DNA of 44,600 bases from an uncultured Victivallales bacterium (GCA_964462755.1 CAYWZD010000003.1:1-44600), one strand, 5' to 3'; counted from the stretch's first letter, positions 14,223-40,850 are shown. Translations and numbers: made by a program. Notes: a model not told the origin generated them from the letters alone.

Positions 14223-15023
14223 ATGAAACGCCTCACAGCCATTCTCCGGAACCGAATCGCAAAGGGCGCGGTCTCACGGACCAGAACTCCCCGAAAATTC
14301 ACATTGATCGAACTCCTTGTCGTGATCGCCATCATCGCGATTCTGGCCGGAATGCTGCTGCCGGTGCTGAGCCGTGCGCGGGAAACGGCCCGTGGCGCGG
14401 CGTGCAAAAACAACCTGCGGCAGCTGGGGCAACTCTGGGATAATTATGCTCTGGACAACAACGAGTATGTGATTCCTTTCCTGCCGTATTCAAGCAAGGT
14501 CAGGACAGACGGCAACCCCTGCTGGTGGTTCGAATTCATGATTATGGAAGACATCATTCCCGGAGCGTCCAAGGGAGGCAAGACTCTTGTTGCGACGGGC
14601 GCCCGACAGATTCTCACCTGCCTTTCCGATGACAGCGAAACCGGCGGGCCGTATCAATTTTTCAGCTCTTTCAAATGTCCCTTGAGTTATGCTTATCTCT
14701 ATGCGACAAGACCCGGTTTCACGAGCGCATCCGGGGATTACCTTCTCAAGCTGTCGCAGATTCGGAACAATGCAAGCAGAGTCCCGCTCTTTGCGGATTG
14801 CTGGAAATGGTGGAAAAATCATCCGGACGCAACCAGTAAAACAACCTATTTCCCAAGACTCACGCCCACATACCGCAATCTGGGATTGAACCGGGCGCAT
14901 ACGAGAGGCATGAACATGGTATTCATCGCAGGAAATGTCGGGGAAGAAGCGGAAGTCATTTGCCGTCAGGCTTCCGCTCAATATGATCTCTGGAATGATG
15001 GAACGACTCTGACCTATAGATAA
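14223..15023 (+). CDS. Prepilin-type N-terminal helix protein, variant H-X9-AG motif
   Basis: 25-aa basic leader, then [30 protein letters not shown]-terminal [12 protein letters not shown] (Ala replaces the family Asp). RBS AAGGAG. Confidence 0.9.
14298..14381 (+). repeat. Dispersed prepilin-helix repeat (copy 3 of 4)
   Basis: Encodes [28 protein letters not shown]. Confidence 0.75.
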
Positions 15024-15042
15024 GGAATAAGGAAAAATACAA

Positions 15043-18000
15043 ATGACCGGGAAAATCTTGACCACTTTGTTTTGCGGCGTTTTCGCTCTTTCCATGCATG
15101 CGGAACTGATTCTCAACGGAGGATTCGAACTTCCGGAAAAGTCCCTCCCATCCAAGGGGATACTGCTCCGCCCGGCGGAAAATTGGGAGTTCATTCTCCA
15201 TGCCGGCGCCGACAAAACAGGCGCCGAACTGACCGACGAGGCTCACTCCGGAAAAAAAGCGGCCCGGTTCTTTACGAAAGTCGAAAAAGCATTTGTCGGC
15301 CTGTATCAGACGTTCGCCTGCGAACCGGACACCACGCTCACCGCCTCCGCCTGGATGAAAGGCGGGAAACAAGGGTGCAAGGCTTATTTCCGAATCCGTT
15401 TCCTCGACAAAAACGGCGTAAAAGACAAAAAATATCTGATGCCGGGCTGGAACGTCAAAGACCAGTGGACCTTCTGTGAATACAAATTCCGGGTCCCGCC
15501 GAATGCTTCCAAAGTTTCTTTCGGGATCGAAACGCTCGGCAACCGGATTCCGGACACCGAGCTTCTCGTGGATGACGTCCGGATTCAGGAAGAGTCCGCG
15601 CCCGTGCTCGCAAACGGGCTGATCCGCGCGGAAATCGATCCCTTGTTCGGCGGCTGTATCCGCAGCCTCGAGACCACCGTCAACGGCAGGAAAATACAAT
15701 GGACGCTTCCCTGTTCGATGAATGTATCGGGCGGACTCGCCTTGGAAATCATTCCGATGCAGCGGGTGCCCGGCGACTTCGCCAACAAGAAATACCTTCT
15801 CTCCGTGCTGGAGCCGAAACGAAAAATCAGGGTATCGCGCACAGAAAACGGCGGTCCGCTCGACGGCCTCCGGGTCAACAAGACCTTTACCCTCGGCAAA
15901 GACGATCTGAAAATCGGCGTCGATCTGGAACTGGTCAATACAGGCGCAAAGACGATCTCGACTTCCTGCCGGGTCCAGAACATTCTCGTCGGCTCCGACG
16001 GATTTTTCACCTCTCCCACCCGCGACTGGCTCCAGACTTTTCACAAAACAGACGAAAGCATCCAAACGACCAACGCCCTCAATTCGGACAATCTCCAGTT
16101 CGGCTGGCTCGCAAAAACCACCCCGGACGCCGCCATCGTGTTTGCCTTCCATCTTCCGGACATCACACACGCCTATTCCTGGACCAGCAAGCCCGTCGAC
16201 ACCGTCGAATGGTATTATTCCGACCTGAAACTCGCACCGGGGAAATCGTGGAAGACCTCCTATTCCATCAATATCGATCCTTCCTCCGATCCTGTTTTCG
16301 CATTCGACGGCAAAGCCGCCTACGGAGTCGATTCGCTCGATCCGAACGCCGCGAAAAAACTGACGATCGCCGCTGTGGAAGACATCTCTCTTAAGTATAC
16401 CGTCAATTCCAAAAATACCGCGGTCAAACTCAGGGCGGGGGAAACCGCGACGATCCTCCTGGATTCGCCGGACGTCAATTGTTCAACAGGGAACTTCGGC
16501 GCCGTTTTCGGTGCAGGGAACAACTATAAGGCGGAATTCATCCGCGGGATTAAACTTCCGGCTCCGAAAGAAATTTCGCGGACGCCCCGTTTCGATCATT
16601 TCTTCCCATTCATATTCAATGACGTCGCCCTGACCTGCCGCGAATCCACGGGAGAGAACGGTTCCGTCAATCAATTCATCCGGAATGCGGAAAACGCCAT
16701 GCGCGAATGCGCCGCCAAGCATTTCAACACGATCATGATGGGACGCATCATTCAGAAAAATATTTTACCGGCGGTCAATCGGAAGGACGGCACAAATCTC
16801 TTCGGGGAACTGGCGGTTCAATATGATGTTTCGCTGGTTTCAAGCACCATCCTTTATCGTAAAAATGAAGTCGACACAGAAAAATACCGTCCCATCCTGA
16901 ATAAAAGGCTTGAAGACTTCTATTATCCGGAACATCTGGACTTTATCAGGAAATACGACAAGCATTACAAAGCGATTTTCACAGCCGACGAGACCACCGG
17001 ACAGAATATTCCGTGCATGATCGAAGCCCATGATGCCTTGACAAAACGCCTGCCGGTCGAACTGCCGGTTTATCCGTATCTCAACATTCATACGCGCGTC
17101 TATATTCCCTACGTCCCGGTTTTCTTCGGCGACTGGTATCCGGTCAACCGCAAAGGATACGGCGGCCGCAATCCGTGGAGCGTCGAACGCGTCGTCGCCG
17201 AAACCGTGGAACAGGCGAAAGGAGTGCCGGTTCACATCATTCTCCAATGTTTCGGCTACTTCAAAAAAGGATATGCCTTCCCGACTCCCGCCGAATACCG
17301 CATGATGTGTCATCTTGCCTGCGCCAACGGGGTGAAGGGAATCGAGAGCCACGAGGTCAACAACCGCGGTCTTTCCTGGCGTTACAACTATGGATACCAC
17401 TACGCAGCCCGCGGCAATGCCGGGGAACTGACCCCACTCTGGTTCGCCCTCGGCGAATGCGCTCGAGAGGTTACGTCCATCGGACCGCAGCTGGTCTCAG
17501 CCTCCCCCTGCCCCGTCCCGGACTGGCTCAAACCCGACTCGCCCCGCTATCGGAGCGCCAACGGTTACTACGACGGACCGCAAGTCAGATTCTATACGCT
17601 CGTCCGCAAAGACGGCACCCTGTTCGCCGTTGCGGTCAACCATTCGGAGAAGACCGCCGCATCCCTCCCGGTGGCCTTCGCTCCGCCGAACCGGGAAAGC
17701 GTCTATTCTCTTACGAGGATGATTCCCGTAAAAGGCAAATACAGTATGGAACTGAAGCCAGGCGGCGCCGAATACTTCGTCATCGGGAAGGAATCCGAAG
17801 TCAGAAGTGTGGCGAATGAAGTCGCGCTGGACCGGTTCAAACGTACAAAAGTCGCATTCCGCATTGCGGCGGACCGGGCGGCGGGGAACGGGGTGGACCT
17901 GAATCCCGCGTTCCGGCTTGAAAAAGAGGCTGTCGCGGCCGCAGCAAACAAAAACGGACTGGAGGCGATGAAGAAAATCGACGAAGCGGAAACCGTCATG

Positions 18001-18381
18001 AACCGCTTGATCGCCGCCTCCGAGTATGGTAAGTTCAACGCCGAATGGAGCAAGGTCAGAACGACGCTTTCGGATGTTTCGTTCCTGTTTCTCACGCATT
18101 TCGATCTGGTCGTTCCTCCGCACCTGCGCGACAAGACGGCCCGTTACGCGAAATGGAACAACACGGACGATCCGGAGATGCAGAAGCGGGTCGATGACGT
18201 GGCGGAGTGCTGGGTGGAATACTGGCGGATCGAAAACCAGATCGTTCACGGCAAACTTTCATCGGTGAGAACCCAGGCCGATTCGCTGATGAAAAAGGCG
18301 TTTGCCGCCTCGAAAGCGGCGACGGCATATCTCAAGGCGAACGAGCATAAGATCGTTGTGGACGCCCCTTACGCGGAGTGA
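15043..18381 (+). CDS. Large secreted protein: CBM4_9-like N-terminal module plus uncharacterised GH-like domain plus helical C-terminal region
   Basis: Signal peptide MTGKILTTLFCGVFALSMHA. ELILNGGFE...LLVDDVRIQ matches the CBM4_9 pattern. FTADETTGQ, GDWYPV and PTPAEYRMMCHLACANGVKGIESHE are paralogous to CDS 4394-6457. RBS AAGGAA. Confidence 0.85.
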   Translation: MTGKILTTLFCGVFALSMHAELILNGGFELPEKSLPSKGILLRPAENWEFILHAGADKTGAELTDEAHSGKKAARFFTKVEKAFVGLYQTFACEPDTTLTASAWMKGGKQGCKAYFRIRFLDKNGVKDKKYLMPGWNVKDQWTFCEYKFRVPPNASKVSFGIETLGNRIPDTELLVDDVRIQEESAPVLANGLIRAEIDPLFGGCIRSLETTVNGRKIQWTLPCSMNVSGGLALEIIPMQRVPGDFANKKYLLSVLEPKRKIRVSRTENGGPLDGLRVNKTFTLGKDDLKIGVDLELVNTGAKTISTSCRVQNILVGSDGFFTSPTRDWLQTFHKTDESIQTTNALNSDNLQFGWLAKTTPDAAIVFAFHLPDITHAYSWTSKPVDTVEWYYSDLKLAPGKSWKTSYSINIDPSSDPVFAFDGKAAYGVDSLDPNAAKKLTIAAVEDISLKYTVNSKNTAVKLRAGETATILLDSPDVNCSTGNFGAVFGAGNNYKAEFIRGIKLPAPKEISRTPRFDHFFPFIFNDVALTCRESTGENGSVNQFIRNAENAMRECAAKHFNTIMMGRIIQKNILPAVNRKDGTNLFGELAVQYDVSLVSSTILYRKNEVDTEKYRPILNKRLEDFYYPEHLDFIRKYDKHYKAIFTADETTGQNIPCMIEAHDALTKRLPVELPVYPYLNIHTRVYIPYVPVFFGDWYPVNRKGYGGRNPWSVERVVAETVEQAKGVPVHIILQCFGYFKKGYAFPTPAEYRMMCHLACANGVKGIESHEVNNRGLSWRYNYGYHYAARGNAGELTPLWFALGECAREVTSIGPQLVSASPCPVPDWLKPDSPRYRSANGYYDGPQVRFYTLVRKDGTLFAVAVNHSEKTAASLPVAFAPPNRESVYSLTRMIPVKGKYSMELKPGGAEYFVIGKESEVRSVANEVALDRFKRTKVAFRIAADRAAGNGVDLNPAFRLEKEAVAAAANKNGLEAMKKIDEAETVMNRLIAASEYGKFNAEWSKVRTTLSDVSFLFLTHFDLVVPPHLRDKTARYAKWNNTDDPEMQKRVDDVAECWVEYWRIENQIVHGKLSSVRTQADSLMKKAFAASKAATAYLKANEHKIVVDAPYAE

Positions 18382-18402
18382 CCTCTCCCCGAGTTTTACA
18401 GC

Positions 18403-18448
18403 AGGATTCCGGGACTTTCGAAAGATGTCCCGGAATCCTCTCTTTTAT
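18403..18448 (+). terminator. Rho-independent terminator of the 15043-18381 gene
   Basis: Perfect 12-bp stem AGGATTCCGGGA / TCCCGGAATCCT, followed by CTCTTTTAT. Confidence 0.75.
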
Positions 18449-18455
18449 AAAAATT

Positions 18456-18529
18456 ACATTTTTGTATATACGTAATTCAAAATCACATTTTTGTATTCTT
18501 CACACTGTTGGAAATGCACCGTTCCGGAA
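18456..18529 (+). promoter_or_regulatory. Conserved upstream element, copy 1 (two ACATTTTTGTA boxes 29 bp apart plus GTTCCGGAA 36 bp further on); candidate enhancer/UAS
   Basis: ACATTTTTGTA at 18456-18466 and 18485-18495, and GTTCCGGAA at 18521-18529. The boxes and spacings are identical at 40652-40725. Confidence 0.6.
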
Positions 18530-18611: not shown

Positions 18612-18627
18612 TGGCATGATTTTTGCT
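18612..18627 (+). promoter_or_regulatory. Sigma54 (-24/-12) promoter of the secretin operon
   Basis: CTGGCATGATTTTTGCT against the consensus YTGGCACGrNNNTTGCW. GG and GC have canonical spacing, with a single mismatch (C to T). Confidence 0.65.
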
Positions 18628-18811
18628 AAGTATCAAAACATAGCCTTGAAAAAACAGGTCAACGGAAAAAAGATGAAGGAGGTGTCATTCGGGAAAACGG
18701 AAAAAACAGAAAAGAAGTGTGACGGATTCGCATATCTGTCCCGTCTGGGGGAAGTTGTAAAGAGATCAAAATATTCCGTAAATGGACATAACTCCGGGAA
18801 ATGGAACTGCA

Positions 18812-20182
18812 ATGGCAACGAAAGATCAATTGAAAAAAAAAGCGCTCTATTGTATACTGTATACATTCATCCTGCTTGCATCGGGAGGCTACGCGGCGGA
18901 GACACGGCAAATCCATCTGATCCAAGACGATGCACAGCGGAAAATGGTCACGAAGATTTATAAGCTCAAGTATGTCCAGGCGACGGACATACGGCCCTGG
19001 GTGGACGCCGCGGCAAAACGGTATACCGACCAGTCCACGCTTTGCCGGATCAGCATTCCGACGCTGAGCGAATGCTGGGTCGGCGTCACCACGGCCACTG
19101 AAATGATGCCCTACATCGACGACCTGGTCGCAAAGCTGGACCGGCCCGGAAAAAAAGGACCGGACGGCTCCCTGATCGAAGGCACCGGCGTCACCAAGGG
19201 AATCTATTATCCCAAATACACCTCCACCGCCATGCTCCAGAAACTCTGCCACATTCTCACCTCGCCGGTGGGAGCCGTCTACGACACCAACAGCACGCTC
19301 TACTGGAAAGACGACAAAACCTACAGCGACGGCATTCTCGAATGGGCGAAATATTTCGACCAGCCGGCCGCCCAGACGAACCTGACGCTGAAATATTATC
19401 TGGTGCGGGAATCGAAACTGCGCGATCTCGGCATCGACTATCTGGCATGGAAAAACGGTCCGGGGCTCAATATGCTGGATTTCGCATACGACGCGGGACG
19501 CGCAACCTTCTCCCGCGCAACCAGCCTCGCAACCCATGCGGCCACATGGGGATACGGATCGTTTCTTGTGGCGCCCGCGTTCGACATGAGTTTCGTCCGC
19601 ATGCTCCAGCAGTCCGGTTCCGCGGAAGTGATGGCCACGGCGAACGCAACCTTCATCTCCGGTGCCGAATCGAACCTGACGCTCGATCCCGTCCTCCAGA
19701 TGATCCAGAAGGATGGGGACGACACCACTTCGGTCATGGGATACATCTCCCCCTCGCTGCTGCCCTCCTTCAACGTGAGGGTCGGAGGCGTCATCGGACT
19801 TGATCCGGAAGCATCAATCCTCAAGGACAGCGGACAGTTCGACATGAACGGCTCTTTCTTTACGAAGAACAAGGGCAATCTTCTTCTCAACTACGCCCTC
19901 TCTTCCAACGACGTCACGGAGGTCGACAACAACGGAGCCCCGGTGGAAACCGTCTGCACCCTTGCCAGCGATACGACTCTCGCTTTCGGGGACGAGGTCA
20001 TCCTCCAGCGGCTCACCAGAAACTCGAAGACGGAGGAAACCATCGGCGTTCCCTTCCTCTGCGAGGTTCCGATCCTCAAATATCTCTTCGGGACCACAAC
20101 CACGATCAACGAGAAAATCTATATCTTCGTGACGGTGAAAGCGAATCTTGTCAACCCGGATGCACCCGTTCCGGTCAAGTAA
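18812..20182 (+). CDS. Compact secretin-family outer-membrane channel protein, paralogue 1
   Basis: Signal peptide MATKDQLKKKALYCILYTFILLASGGYA (alternative ATG at 18782). Two NolW/Secretin_N-like repeats (KIYKLKYVQATDIRPWV...IDDLVAKLD). Secretin domain ends GVPFLCEVPILKYLFGTTTTINEKIYIFVTVKANLV. Confidence 0.85.
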   Translation: MATKDQLKKKALYCILYTFILLASGGYAAETRQIHLIQDDAQRKMVTKIYKLKYVQATDIRPWVDAAAKRYTDQSTLCRISIPTLSECWVGVTTATEMMPYIDDLVAKLDRPGKKGPDGSLIEGTGVTKGIYYPKYTSTAMLQKLCHILTSPVGAVYDTNSTLYWKDDKTYSDGILEWAKYFDQPAAQTNLTLKYYLVRESKLRDLGIDYLAWKNGPGLNMLDFAYDAGRATFSRATSLATHAATWGYGSFLVAPAFDMSFVRMLQQSGSAEVMATANATFISGAESNLTLDPVLQMIQKDGDDTTSVMGYISPSLLPSFNVRVGGVIGLDPEASILKDSGQFDMNGSFFTKNKGNLLLNYALSSNDVTEVDNNGAPVETVCTLASDTTLAFGDEVILQRLTRNSKTEETIGVPFLCEVPILKYLFGTTTTINEKIYIFVTVKANLVNPDAPVPVK

Positions 20183-20202: not shown

Positions 20203-21819
20203 ATGAAGTTCAACACCCCCTCTGTCCTCTCTTTTCTTCTCGCCGCGCCGGGCCTCCTTTTTGCGGGCGGGGAGCAAACCATCAACCTCAACGGTCAGCC
20301 GGATCAGGGCGTCAACAATCCGACGGGAACCTACGCGCCCTCCAATGTGTCCGCGAAAATCAACATCAACCTCGATAAGAACGAAAAGAGCGTCCATTTC
20401 ATCCGCGACAACAACGACCCGTATGTCGTCACCAGGGCCTACGTGCTGAAAAATGCCGATCCCTATGTCGCGTGCGGCATTCTCCGCTCGCTCATACGTC
20501 CGACCATCAAGACCAATCCCGCCACGGTCGACGCCATCAAATACAACGACGGGACAGGGATCGTGATGGTCTCCGCCGAAGAAAACTTCTTCCAGGACCC
20601 GGGAACCGGCATGAGCATCGAATCCATGGTCAACATGATCGACATCAACAAAATGGTCTTCTCGGACGGAAGGAAGAGATATGTCTACTTCTGCAAGGCC
20701 AACACCGCCGCCACCATGCTCAAGATGATCCGGCGGGTCGGCCTCCTTTCCGCAAACGGCGTCGAGTCCGTCACCTACGGCAGAATGCCGAAAGAATACC
20801 AGGTCACCATCGATGAAACGCACAACGCCATTTTCTTCAACGCCTCCGGCTTCAACATTTCCTCCTCCCGGGCCATGCTTGCGGAATACGACGTTCCCGC
20901 CTGTCAGGGAACCCTCGACTACAAGCTGATCGAGGTTTCGGACGAGAATGACACCAAGCTCGGCCTCGACTTCCAGAGCTGGAAAAACAACGACGGCATC
21001 TCCCTCTTCTCCGCCGGCGCCGTTTTCTCCCGTTCCGGCAGAACCAACAACTACTCGATGCTGAACTTCAACCCCAAGTGGAATTCGAAATACATCGATT
21101 TCCTGATGGCCACAAGCCATGCGAAGATCGTTCATTCCGGCTCCATCACCATTCAGGACACCTGCCCGATGAACATCTCCGTGTCCTCCGGAATGATGGG
21201 GGTCGTGGTCACCCCGGTCGGAGACAAGGGCGAAGTGCTCGGCGAAGCGATTGCCTCGGCCTCCAACGCGGCCGTCAAGGTGCTCAGACAGATTCCCGCG
21301 AGAGTCGAGGCGATGCCGCTCTCCCAGGGAACTCTTCAGGAGATCAAGCCGACGGAAGGCTTCTCCTTCAACGCCGCCATTCTGCCGTCGCTCGGAAGCA
21401 CATCGGCCTCCCTCAACGTCGCCATCAGCGGGGTCTCCCTGATCGGCTACGACAGCACCGGCGCGCCCCGCATGGTTTCCTCCTCCTATGTCTCCGATGT
21501 TCAGGTCGGCACGCAGAAGGACTTCATGATCGGCGGCATCACCAAGTCAAAACTCATCCGCACGGTCAACGGGATTCCTTTCCTGAAAGACATCCCGCTC
21601 CTCGGATATCTTTTCAGCACGGAAACAACCGCCATCAAGAAATCCCAGTTCATCCTGATGTGCTCCTATACGCCCGACGTCCATCCCGGCGGAAAAGACG
21701 GCTCCGCACTCATGGCGGACATCAGCAAGATCGAAGCCAAACTCAAGGAAGTCGAAAAGCATCCGACAAAAGCCCTCGGTTTCGAACAATACGGAATCGA
21801 TACGGATAAGATCGAATAA
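20203..21819 (+). CDS. Compact secretin-family outer-membrane channel protein, paralogue 2
   Basis: Signal peptide MKFNTPSVLSFLLAAPGLLFAGG. N-domain repeats. C-terminal NGIPFLKDIPLLGYLFSTETTAIKKSQFILMCSYTPDV. RBS AAGGAAG. Motifs are paralogous to the upstream gene. Confidence 0.85.
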   Translation: MKFNTPSVLSFLLAAPGLLFAGGEQTINLNGQPDQGVNNPTGTYAPSNVSAKININLDKNEKSVHFIRDNNDPYVVTRAYVLKNADPYVACGILRSLIRPTIKTNPATVDAIKYNDGTGIVMVSAEENFFQDPGTGMSIESMVNMIDINKMVFSDGRKRYVYFCKANTAATMLKMIRRVGLLSANGVESVTYGRMPKEYQVTIDETHNAIFFNASGFNISSSRAMLAEYDVPACQGTLDYKLIEVSDENDTKLGLDFQSWKNNDGISLFSAGAVFSRSGRTNNYSMLNFNPKWNSKYIDFLMATSHAKIVHSGSITIQDTCPMNISVSSGMMGVVVTPVGDKGEVLGEAIASASNAAVKVLRQIPARVEAMPLSQGTLQEIKPTEGFSFNAAILPSLGSTSASLNVAISGVSLIGYDSTGAPRMVSSSYVSDVQVGTQKDFMIGGITKSKLIRTVNGIPFLKDIPLLGYLFSTETTAIKKSQFILMCSYTPDVHPGGKDGSALMADISKIEAKLKEVEKHPTKALGFEQYGIDTDKIE

Positions 21820-39659: not shown

Positions 39660-40424
39660 TCAGGCGGGAATATCGACATTCGCGATAGACTCGACAACCA
39701 TGGACGGCTGAAAAGCGTATTCGGAAAGCTCTTCCCGTTTCGTGTTGCCGGATAGCACGAGGATCGTTCTGTAACCCATCTGGACGCCGCCCAGAATGTC
39801 GGTTTCCATGGTGTCGCCGATCACGGTGGTTTCCTCGGCGGAAAGCCCGATCTCCTTGCGCGCCTCGCGCATCATGATCGGACTGGGTTTGCCCAAGCTG
39901 AACGCCTTGACGCCCGTGGCGGCTTCCAGCATGGCCACGATCGCCCCGCAGCCCGGACGCATCCCGTTGGTCGTCGGGCAATTCGGGTCCGGATTGGTGG
40001 AGATCAGTTTCGCGCCCTTGAAAATCATGTTGACCGCCAGTTCGATGGCCTCCATATTCATGGTGCGTCCCTCGCCGACGATCACATAATCGGGATCGGA
40101 ATCCACCACGGCGTAACCGTTGTAGTGGAGCGCATGGAGAAGTCCGCCTTCCCCGATGACGAACGCCGTGCCGTCGGGCTTCTGCCGTTTGAGGAAACGG
40201 GCCGTTGCCATGGCACAGTTAAAGACCTGCTTTTCCGTAATATTGAATCCGAGACGGTTCATCTTGATCGTGGTGTCGCGACGGGTCCGCTGACTGTTGT
40301 TCGTGAAAAATGTGAAAGGGACTTTCCTGTCCACAAGAGAGTTGATGAATTCGCACGCGCCGGGGATGACCGTCTTACCGCGGTAGACCACGCCATCCAT
40401 GTCAATCAGAAATCCGTTTTTCAT
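39660..40424 (-). CDS. HAD-IIA (NagD-like) sugar phosphatase
   Basis: MKNGFLIDMDGVVYRG, FFTNNS, LGKPSP and IGDTMETDI. RBS AAGGAAG before ATG 40424. Confidence 0.9.
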   Translation of the reverse strand: MKNGFLIDMDGVVYRGKTVIPGACEFINSLVDRKVPFTFFTNNSQRTRRDTTIKMNRLGFNITEKQVFNCAMATARFLKRQKPDGTAFVIGEGGLLHALHYNGYAVVDSDPDYVIVGEGRTMNMEAIELAVNMIFKGAKLISTNPDPNCPTTNGMRPGCGAIVAMLEAATGVKAFSLGKPSPIMMREARKEIGLSAEETTVIGDTMETDILGGVQMGYRTILVLSGNTKREELSEYAFQPSMVVESIANVDIPA

Positions 40425-40651
40425 TCTTTTCTTCCTTTCATTCACAGGGAAACCGGATTCTTCGAGCGAACGCTTTCCGCTCATGAACCGGAAATATTTT
40501 CCTGCGAAAAAACGGAGGCGTCACGCTCTCCGTGAAAATACGCTTTTTCTTTAGCATTTTACATGCCAACCATTCCTTTTCTGCATAAAACAAGCAGGAA
40601 TCCGCTGAAAACCATAAAACGGAACGGAAGATATAAGAACAGATAAATAAT

Positions 40652-40725
40652 ACATTTTTGTAATTCATTAAATCAAAATTACATTTTTGTATCACATTAC
40701 ATCTACCGGGAACATTGTTCCGGAA
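40652..40725 (+). promoter_or_regulatory. Conserved upstream element, copy 2
   Basis: ACATTTTTGTA at 40652-40662 and 40681-40691, and GTTCCGGAA at 40717-40725. The 29-nt and 36-nt spacings are identical to copy 1. Confidence 0.6.
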
Positions 40726-40821
40726 CATCTGTCTGAATTCTTCGGATGAGACGGACCTGCCTGAAATCGGGAAAACATCTGATTTTTTTGAGAAGGTTTT
40801 TAACTTAAACGGTTCTTTGAT

Positions 40822-40850
40822 TTGCAGAAACGCCGTTACGGTGCTATACT
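40822..40850 (+). promoter_or_regulatory. Sigma70-type promoter of the kinase-like gene
   Basis: TTGCAG, 17-nt spacer, TATACT. Confidence 0.5.

Follow-up and report, generated by a model that had tools for sequence, protein, structure and literature searches.

The DNA analysed here, a stretch of 44,600 nucleotides from an uncultured Victivallales bacterium that is referred to as the window, contains the 11-mer ACATTTTTGTA in two pairs located 22 kb apart, raising the question of what these repeats are and which genes they serve. The initial annotation had regarded each pair, together with a downstream 9-mer, as one copy of a duplicated ~75-bp element. Exactly four copies of the 11-mer are present on the plus strand of the window (18456-18466, 18485-18495, 40652-40662 and 40681-40691), and the two pairs are on the same strand with a start-to-start distance of 29 nt, so that all annotated coordinates proved to be correct. 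No additional match was found in the window when up to one mismatch was allowed. The number expected by chance at this stringency is 0.34 and none of 100 dinucleotide shuffles yielded four copies, which bears out the annotated view that the repetition is not accidental. Since three of the four 11-mers are preceded by a T, the unit is the 12-bp palindrome TACA-TTTT-TGTA. Copy 1 accordingly consists of box 1a (TACATTTTTGTA, positions 18455-18466), with the palindrome TACA-W4-TGTA, and box 1b (CACATTTTTGTA, positions 18484-18495), and copy 2 of box 2a (TACATTTTTGTA, positions 40651-40662) and box 2b (TACATTTTTGTA, positions 40680-40691), the second box following the first by 29 nt in either case. 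An alignment of the two ~260-bp copy regions revealed only the boxes, an A/T-rich stretch before the second box and the 9-mer GTTCCGGAA as common features. With so little shared sequence, the copies do not represent a duplicated DNA segment but two instances of a short pair of sites.

The presence of two similar copies at a distance of 22 kb might indicate remnants of a mobile repeat, and the copy 2 region folds somewhat better than its shuffled counterparts (z ~-2.3), as might be expected from a structured RNA. However, the copies have only the 12-bp cores in common, the copy 1 region gave no fold signal (z = 0.3), no consistent fold is apparent, and the Rfam covariance models produced no match anywhere in the window. 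As the 44.6 kb contain four boxes and other genomes have a single pair at each locus, the sequence does not behave as a high-copy repeat scattered over the DNA, and the orientation of the boxes to the downstream gene flips between orthologues. As the boxes lie upstream of promoters, they should moreover not be transcribed along with their targets. An origin of the pairs as mobile repeats or RNA elements therefore has a minimal probability. The reading that we favour, with a probability of about 0.75, is that the box pairs are enhancers (UAS) for a sigma-54 activator of the NifA family.

Copy 1 is located in a 430-bp gap between a gene for a 1112-aa protein (15043-18381) upstream and two tandem secretin genes downstream. 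The upstream gene is followed by a strong hairpin on the plus strand (18400-18441; -26.8 kcal/mol, z = -5.9), probably a terminator that insulates the enhancer from the upstream operon and that is missed by a simple terminator scan because its loop and T-run are outside the scan rules. Sigma-54 promoters were searched with the pattern TGGCAC-N5-TTGCW at exact spacing, which is matched without mismatch at 18612-18627 and with one mismatch at 40568-40553. The former site, TGGCATGATTTTTGCT, is a -24/-12 promoter on the plus strand with no mismatch to TGGCAYGNNNNTTGCW. It lies 127 and 156 nt from the box starts and 116 nt past box 1b, in good agreement with the annotated distance of 123-157 bp between copy 1 and a sigma-54 promoter, and the centres of boxes 1a and 1b are at about -176 and -147 from the predicted transcription start. 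The promoter is predicted to drive the secretin pair via a leader of ~175 nt. The first predicted target, secretin 1, comprises 456 aa by homology (18812-20182, plus strand; the ORF opens at 18782) and the second gene of the predicted operon encodes secretin 2 with 538 aa (20203-21819, plus strand).

Secretin 1 is 97% identical to a protein in GCA_032941855.1, and the pairing of the secretin genes is conserved in six further loci (L126-L129, L253 and L254). In L126, both boxes, their 29-nt phase and an identical sigma-54 promoter are kept before the secretin pair, with box 1b reading TACATTTTTGTA. In L127/L128, which belong to another Victivallaceae genome, a 46%-identical secretin pair is located directly after glnK-amtB, and this cluster is preceded by TACAAAAATTTC-N19-TACGTTTTTGTA and the sigma-54 promoter TGGCACACAAACTGCT. 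The paralogous secretin pairs in L129, L253 and L254 possess neither boxes nor sigma-54 promoters, and their neighbours are other transport and assimilation genes. These neighbours are an SNF transporter with a melibiase in L129 and an NMT1/SsuA-type ABC transporter with DUF1847 in both L253 and L254, accompanied by a sulfite/nitrite reductase in the first case and by a cysteine synthase in the second. The variety of nutrient loci in which secretin pairs occur suggests that they are outer-membrane channels tied to nutrient acquisition. The proteins of the pair match only the C-terminal part of PF00263 and belong to a large Lentisphaeria family with 670 matches at E <= 1e-10.

Copy 2 is flanked by a minus-strand gene for a NagD-like HAD-IIA hydrolase and a plus-strand gene for a Ser/Thr kinase. 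The sigma-54 promoter-like site TGGCATGTAAAATGCT (40553-40568, minus strand) is found 83 nt beyond box 2a and faces the HAD gene; its single mismatch resides in a weaker -12 region, with ATGC instead of TTGC. The centres of boxes 2a and 2b are at about -114 and -143 from the predicted minus-strand start. The predicted copy 2 target (39660-40424, minus strand) encodes 254 aa by homology, within an ORF that extends to 40484 and comprises 274 aa from the first ATG. Since the ~120 homologues, with lengths of 251-335 aa, align from residue ~21 onwards, the start is probably near 40424, about 20 codons downstream of the first ATG. An exact-protein look-up with the 274-aa ORF returned no match. The HAD protein is 94% and 79% identical to proteins of GCA_964581935.1 and Victivallis sp. 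Marseille-Q1083, respectively, and these identities, together with that of secretin 1, assign the source to the Victivallaceae (Lentisphaerota).

Orthologous HAD regions were used to decide which of the two divergent genes is served by copy 2. In L120/L121 (94% protein identity), where the kinase gene remains the divergent neighbour, both boxes occur in the same phase and read TACAAAATTGTC and TACAAAAATGTA on the HAD strand; box 2a is conserved and box 2b is replaced by GACAATTTTGTA when read on the same strand as in the window. The promoter before the HAD gene of L120, TGGCACGGGAGTTGCT, is better than that of the window. Two regions with different neighbours likewise carry boxes and a promoter before the HAD gene, namely L125 (81%) with TTACATTTTTGTACC and TTACATTTTTCGCC in opposite orientation and the promoter TGGCACGCTTTTTGCT, and L122 from Victivallis sp. 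Marseille-Q1083 (79%) with TTACATTTTTGTCC and the promoter TGGCATGGCTTCTGCT. In three further Victivallaceae lineages, boxes and a sigma-54 promoter are thus retained before the HAD gene, even where its neighbours differ and the boxes are inverted, and this comparison indicates that enhancer and promoter travel with the HAD gene and not with the kinase gene. A search with the sigma-54 consensus detected no correctly spaced site facing the kinase gene, which is preceded, outside the enhancer, by a sigma-70-like promoter with an extended -10 region (TTTGCA-18-TG-TATACT; 40821-40850, plus strand) whose two hexamers are conserved in L120. The sequence CGGTTCTTTGATTTGCA before the kinase gene was considered as a sigma-54 promoter and discarded on account of its GG-N11-GC spacing and its overlap with the sigma-70-like promoter. 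The initial annotation had joined the secretin operon and the kinase gene in one regulon. The part of this proposal that stands is that the two copies define one regulon; its second target, however, is the HAD gene, as the only sigma-54-like site near copy 2 (40568-40553) faces this gene, and boxes and promoter follow it in related genomes. As a separate observation, the HAD gene of L120 is followed by genes for a LacI protein, a DUF1559 protein and a 1119-aa protein that resemble the window genes at 14223-18381. In the window these counterparts are 22 kb off and adjoin copy 1, suggesting a rearrangement between the two lineages.

The initial annotation had further included GTTCCGGAA in the element, and an alternative to separate box pairs is a three-part module of ~75 bp, composed of two boxes and GTTCCGGAA, that functions as a whole in the joint regulation of the secretin operon and the kinase gene. 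The 9-mer does start 36 nt after the second box in each copy, at 18521 (18521-18529) and at 40717 (within GTTCCGGAAC, 40717-40726), exactly as annotated, and in L126 the 20 nt around it are unchanged while the stretch between the second box and GTTCCGGAA has changes. L126 is nevertheless too close a relative, with 97% protein identity, for this retention to be informative. The 9-mer is a common word in the window, with nine occurrences (6294, 7383, 18521, 23431, 24001, 28527, 40717, 40718 and 43667) against 1.17 expected, an eight-fold excess, and seven of the nine are within coding regions. A codon or dipeptide bias is a possible source of this over-representation. GTTCCGGAA is absent from the orthologous HAD regions L120, L121, L122 and L125 and from all other lineages, and the composite of boxes and TTCCGGAA gave 0 matches in 241 million metagenome records. 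In copy 1 it separates enhancer and promoter, whereas in copy 2 the promoter is on the opposite side of the boxes. In view of these data and of the promoter arrangement at the kinase gene described above, the three-part module is very unlikely. The 9-mer is judged to lie outside the enhancer in both copies and is treated as a coincidence or as a lineage-specific feature unrelated to it. Without GTTCCGGAA, the presumed ~75-bp element shrinks to two sites of 12-14 bp that are about three helical turns apart.

The distribution of the box pair was determined by two scans. A scan of one genome per species, covering 596 Gb, with the pattern box-N8-38-box and exact boxes resulted in at least 119 loci, and an independent metagenome scan with the exact pattern TACA-W4-TGTA-N17-19-TACA-W4-TGTA resulted in at least 114 single-pair loci, many of them on short contigs. 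Among the genome matches listed, the spacers N19 (28 pairs), N20 (13) and N18 (12) dominate and a second group has spacers of N21-22; the peak at N18-20 corresponds to 29-31 bp from start to start, and the spacing in both window copies is 29 nt. A strong sigma-54 site within 300 bp on either side accompanies 31 of the 53 N18-20 pairs but only 2 of the 77 pairs with other spacers among the matches listed (Fisher p = 1.8e-13), and 6% of random 640-bp segments from the genome-scan loci carry such a site. The other 22 of the 53 N18-20 pairs listed have no strong sigma-54 site within 300 bp at the threshold used. The promoters associated with the listed pairs form two classes, one on the same strand at 55-180 nt after the second box, to which copy 1 belongs with 116 nt, and a commoner one on the opposite strand at 45-165 nt beyond the first box (mode 77-97), to which copy 2 belongs with 83 nt.

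The hosts of the matches listed comprise Victivallaceae, other Lentisphaeria, Phycisphaerae, other Planctomycetota, Opitutales, Akkermansia, many Spirochaetota including Leptospira, many Desulfobacterota, Fibrobacter, Bacteroidales, Cytophagia, Holophagaceae and Margulisbacteria. In public genomes and metagenomes taken together, box pairs with a spacer of 17-20 nt occur in Lentisphaerota, Planctomycetota, Verrucomicrobiota, Spirochaetota, Desulfobacterota, Fibrobacterota, Bacteroidota and Acidobacteriota, among others. The flanks of the listed boxes show preferences for T at -1 (48 of 62), for Y at -2 paired with R at +11 and, weakly, for A/T at -7 to -4. In the metagenome boxes, the centre is variable, with AAAA, TTTT, TAAT, ATTT and further tetramers, and paired boxes may have opposite orientations of the T-tract. 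Given the variable W4 centre and the free orientation, the recognised feature is a palindrome with an A/T centre.

Several groups of matches were set aside. The 24 TACATATATGTA pairs of the metagenome scan are in low-complexity TA/TG-rich DNA with no promoter, and the pairs with N21-22 spacers, mostly from Mollicutes and Firmicutes, and with other spacers are unlinked to sigma-54 promoters and represent other elements or chance matches. Arrays of three to five copies of (T)CACATTTTTGTAT with a period of 33 bp and an N22 spacer were observed in MAGs of Mollicutes, Acholeplasmatales and Bacilli (L028, L031, L055 and L112). They are without sigma-54 promoters and appear to be an iteron-like, different element that shares the 11-mer.

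Palindromes of this kind are also used by other regulators, and the boxes could be operators of a repressor, for instance of a winged-helix protein recognising the TACA/TGTA half-sites, or parts of sigma-70-type promoters. The cop box has the sequence TACAnnTGTA. The type II site of the NiaR repressor of Thermotogales contains an ACA-N5-TGT core (PMC2330245), a likeness that was rejected as the coincidence of a short palindrome. A weak sigma-70-like match on the minus strand overlaps copy 2, but such matches occur at chance level. The location of the boxes at 45-180 bp from the promoters, on either side, is unsuited to occlusion, and their tight association with sigma-54 promoters and with activator genes argues against a repressor site as well. 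A role as operator or sigma-70 promoter part is considered highly improbable.

The genes behind the enhancers point to a common physiological function. The first genes after the box-linked promoters encode AmtB, PII, glutamine synthetase (GS) type I or III, GltB or GlnD at 24 of 29 genome loci among the matches listed; the remaining loci include those with a urea/amide-type binding protein with permease, GatCAB and a Gcw_chp outer-membrane barrel before amtB. In the metagenome scan, 35 of the at least 114 single-pair loci have a sigma-54 site among the matches listed, giving 36 promoters, 29 of which are followed by the AmtB, PII, GS, GltB or GlnD classes. No nif genes were found downstream in any locus examined. 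These comparative data from other organisms make nitrogen assimilation the most likely function of the box-pair regulon. In L036, L119 and L135, divergent sigma-54 promoters are present on both sides of a single box pair, which forms a bidirectional enhancer; in Akkermansia (L119) and in a human-gut contig (L135), the genes on the two sides are those for GltB and GS type III. In L066, L089 and L115, from Planctomycetota and Holophagaceae, the box pair and a sigma-54 promoter drive a Gcw_chp (PF09694) outer-membrane barrel gene, which is located ahead of amtB in L089. This barrel is possibly the functional counterpart of the secretin pair.

A candidate for the cognate protein is provided by the genes adjacent to the boxes. 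Among the matches listed, a protein with the GAFTGA motif is encoded in 16 genome loci, and in 12 of these its gene is no more than ~800 nt away from the boxes; it is transcribed divergently from the target promoter or else immediately precedes the boxes, which then follow or overlap its stop codon. The box-adjacent activators contain the domains GAF, Sigma54_activat, AAA_lid and HTH_8 in ~505-540 aa and have no Response_reg domain. The Fibrobacter activators (L016, L034, L037 and L054) are proteins of 351-379 aa without GAF. Here the boxes precede the activator's own gene by ~110-290 nt, and in L054 they have a GS type III gene on their opposite side. For five activators the best NCBIfam model was NifA TIGR01817 with 490-576 bits, three of the five scoring above the cut-off of 528.85 and the Lentisphaeria activator below it with 489.5. 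The alignment spans positions 3-439 of the 534 profile positions, covering the GAF and AAA+ parts only and leaving out the C-terminal DNA-binding part, which fits a site differing from TGT-N10-ACA, the UAS of NifA at sigma-54 nif promoters. The HTH segments and recognition helices are alike across phyla, with the pattern AA-x-x-LG-(I/L)-(T/S)-(E/P)-R-x-(L/M/I)-x-(Y/L)-(K/R). Orthologues with 64-73% identity to the Lentisphaeria activator are encoded by V. vadensis, V. lenta, Victivallis sp. Marseille-Q1083, which has two paralogues, and other Victivallaceae; every Victivallis genome listed contains one. As no activator gene was found in the 44.6-kb window, the cognate protein of the window boxes is assigned by analogy.

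The two paralogues of Victivallis sp. Marseille-Q1083 have near-identical HTH recognition helices. P0258 is encoded after a HIT-family gene and P0339 in a gltB-gltD-dapF-aminotransferase-activator-nadE cluster, and boxes are absent from the 6 kb around either activator gene in the loci examined (L251 and L252, from this strain and a related contig). The boxes of the window could be read by such a paralogue in response to a signal other than nitrogen, such as the status of the envelope or of carbohydrates, so that the secretin and HAD genes would constitute a small regulon of their own with nothing but the DNA motif in common with the nitrogen regulon. The window targets are indeed not classical nitrogen-assimilation genes, and the remainder of the window, which is of PVC type according to Pfam, is rich in genes for glycan utilisation and for DUF1559/N_methyl proteins. 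Against this, the homologous secretin pair in L127/L128 is directly after glnK-amtB under the same enhancer, and outer-membrane barrels are co-regulated with amtB by this enhancer in other phyla. Both paralogues would moreover bind identical boxes, unless further determinants are involved. We regard a separate, non-nitrogen regulon as unlikely and retain a NifA-family enhancer as the preferred explanation.

The arrangement of the window boxes is that of sigma-54 enhancers, with sites at roughly 80-200 bp from the promoter, on either side and in either orientation, and with helical phasing of the paired sites. An activator with a GAF sensor, an AAA+ ATPase carrying GAFTGA and a Fis-type HTH_8 domain would bind each palindrome, yTACA-W4-TGTAr, as one dimer. 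The separation of the sites by 29-31 bp, or about three helical turns, would favour assembly of the active oligomer, which would loop the DNA to the sigma-54 RNA polymerase at a -24/-12 promoter 45-180 bp away and open this promoter by ATP hydrolysis. A palindromic site combined with looping would enable the enhancer to work from either side and in either orientation, and in copy 1 the T-tracts between enhancer and promoter may help bending. In the source organism, copy 1 would activate the promoter at 18612-18627 and thereby the two secretin genes, and copy 2 the minus-strand promoter at 40568-40553 and thereby the gene of the NagD-like HAD hydrolase. As the same enhancer drives genes of ammonium uptake and assimilation elsewhere, the signal is most likely nitrogen limitation, which might be sensed through the GAF domain and/or PII; this part of the reading is held with somewhat less confidence than the enhancer function itself. 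GAF domains of NifA-type activators and PII have an established role in nitrogen signalling.

To our knowledge, neither the nitrogen regulator nor its DNA site is well characterised in PVC bacteria, Spirochaetota, Fibrobacterota, Bacteroidota and Desulfobacterota. In these groups the box pair would be a short and sharp enhancer that marks nitrogen-regulated sigma-54 promoters and points to a NifA-like GAF activator, and it would offer a simple annotation rule for the nitrogen regulons of uncultured gut and sediment bacteria. In Victivallaceae, it would add two unexpected members to the regulon, the secretin pair and the NagD-like phosphatase, and it raises the testable idea that secretin channels of the outer membrane are connected with nutrient limitation. 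A search of the available literature, whose negative outcome does not prove novelty, found no paper on the box pair or on NifA-like control of nitrogen assimilation in these phyla, and a full-text search with the 12-mer gave only unrelated eukaryotic matches. A more far-reaching proposal, which is tentative and as a whole rather improbable, combines these points. The secretin pair would be a nutrient-acquisition channel of the outer membrane and would not serve secretion or pilus extrusion; paralogous pairs of Lentisphaerota would be wired to different nutrient-limitation regulons, the present one to nitrogen via the NifA-like enhancer, with other pairs being neighbours of sulfonate-type ABC transporters and of genes for sulfite reductase or cysteine synthase. 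The secretins would then have the role of the Gcw_chp barrel ahead of amtB in Planctomycetota and Acidobacteriota, and the TACA-W4-TGTA enhancer with its GAF activator would constitute an undescribed, phylum-spanning master switch of nitrogen assimilation outside Proteobacteria.

The control of nitrogen assimilation by sigma-54 via NtrC is textbook knowledge for Proteobacteria. NtrC (NRI), a response regulator that contains a receiver domain and is phosphorylated, binds TGCACC-N5-GGTGCA. The architecture at enterobacterial glnAp2 is the same as that of the box pair, with a pair of dimer sites that are separated by about three helical turns and followed by a sigma-54 promoter, and NtrC shares with the present system targets such as glutamine synthetase and amtB-glnK as well as orientation-independent looping. 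It differs in the sequence of the site and in the receiver domain, in place of which the activators described here have a GAF domain. NifA resembles these activators in its GAF and AAA+ architecture, in its action on sigma-54 promoters from ~80-200 bp and in its link to nitrogen status. The sites, however, are tandem TACA-W4-TGTA palindromes instead of TGT-N10-ACA, the targets of the box pair are genes of ammonium assimilation and uptake, with the secretin and HAD hydrolase genes in the window, and not nif genes, and many of the hosts are not known diazotrophs. According to a survey from 2025, Planctomycetota, Thermodesulfobacteriota and Spirochaetota show poor conservation of NtrBC (PMC12316311). 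A third closely related system is EbpA-RpoN of Leptospira, in which EbpA, a GAF-domain sigma-54 activator of amtB, supports growth at low nitrogen and binds upstream regions as a recombinant protein (PMC12655853). Compared by the description in this review only, EbpA differs in being FhlA-like with two GAF domains and agrees with the activators considered here in being a GAF-domain sigma-54 activator that turns on amtB. Moreover, loci of Leptospira and Leptospirales carry the box pair, in one case (L070) before a sigma-54 promoter and glnA.
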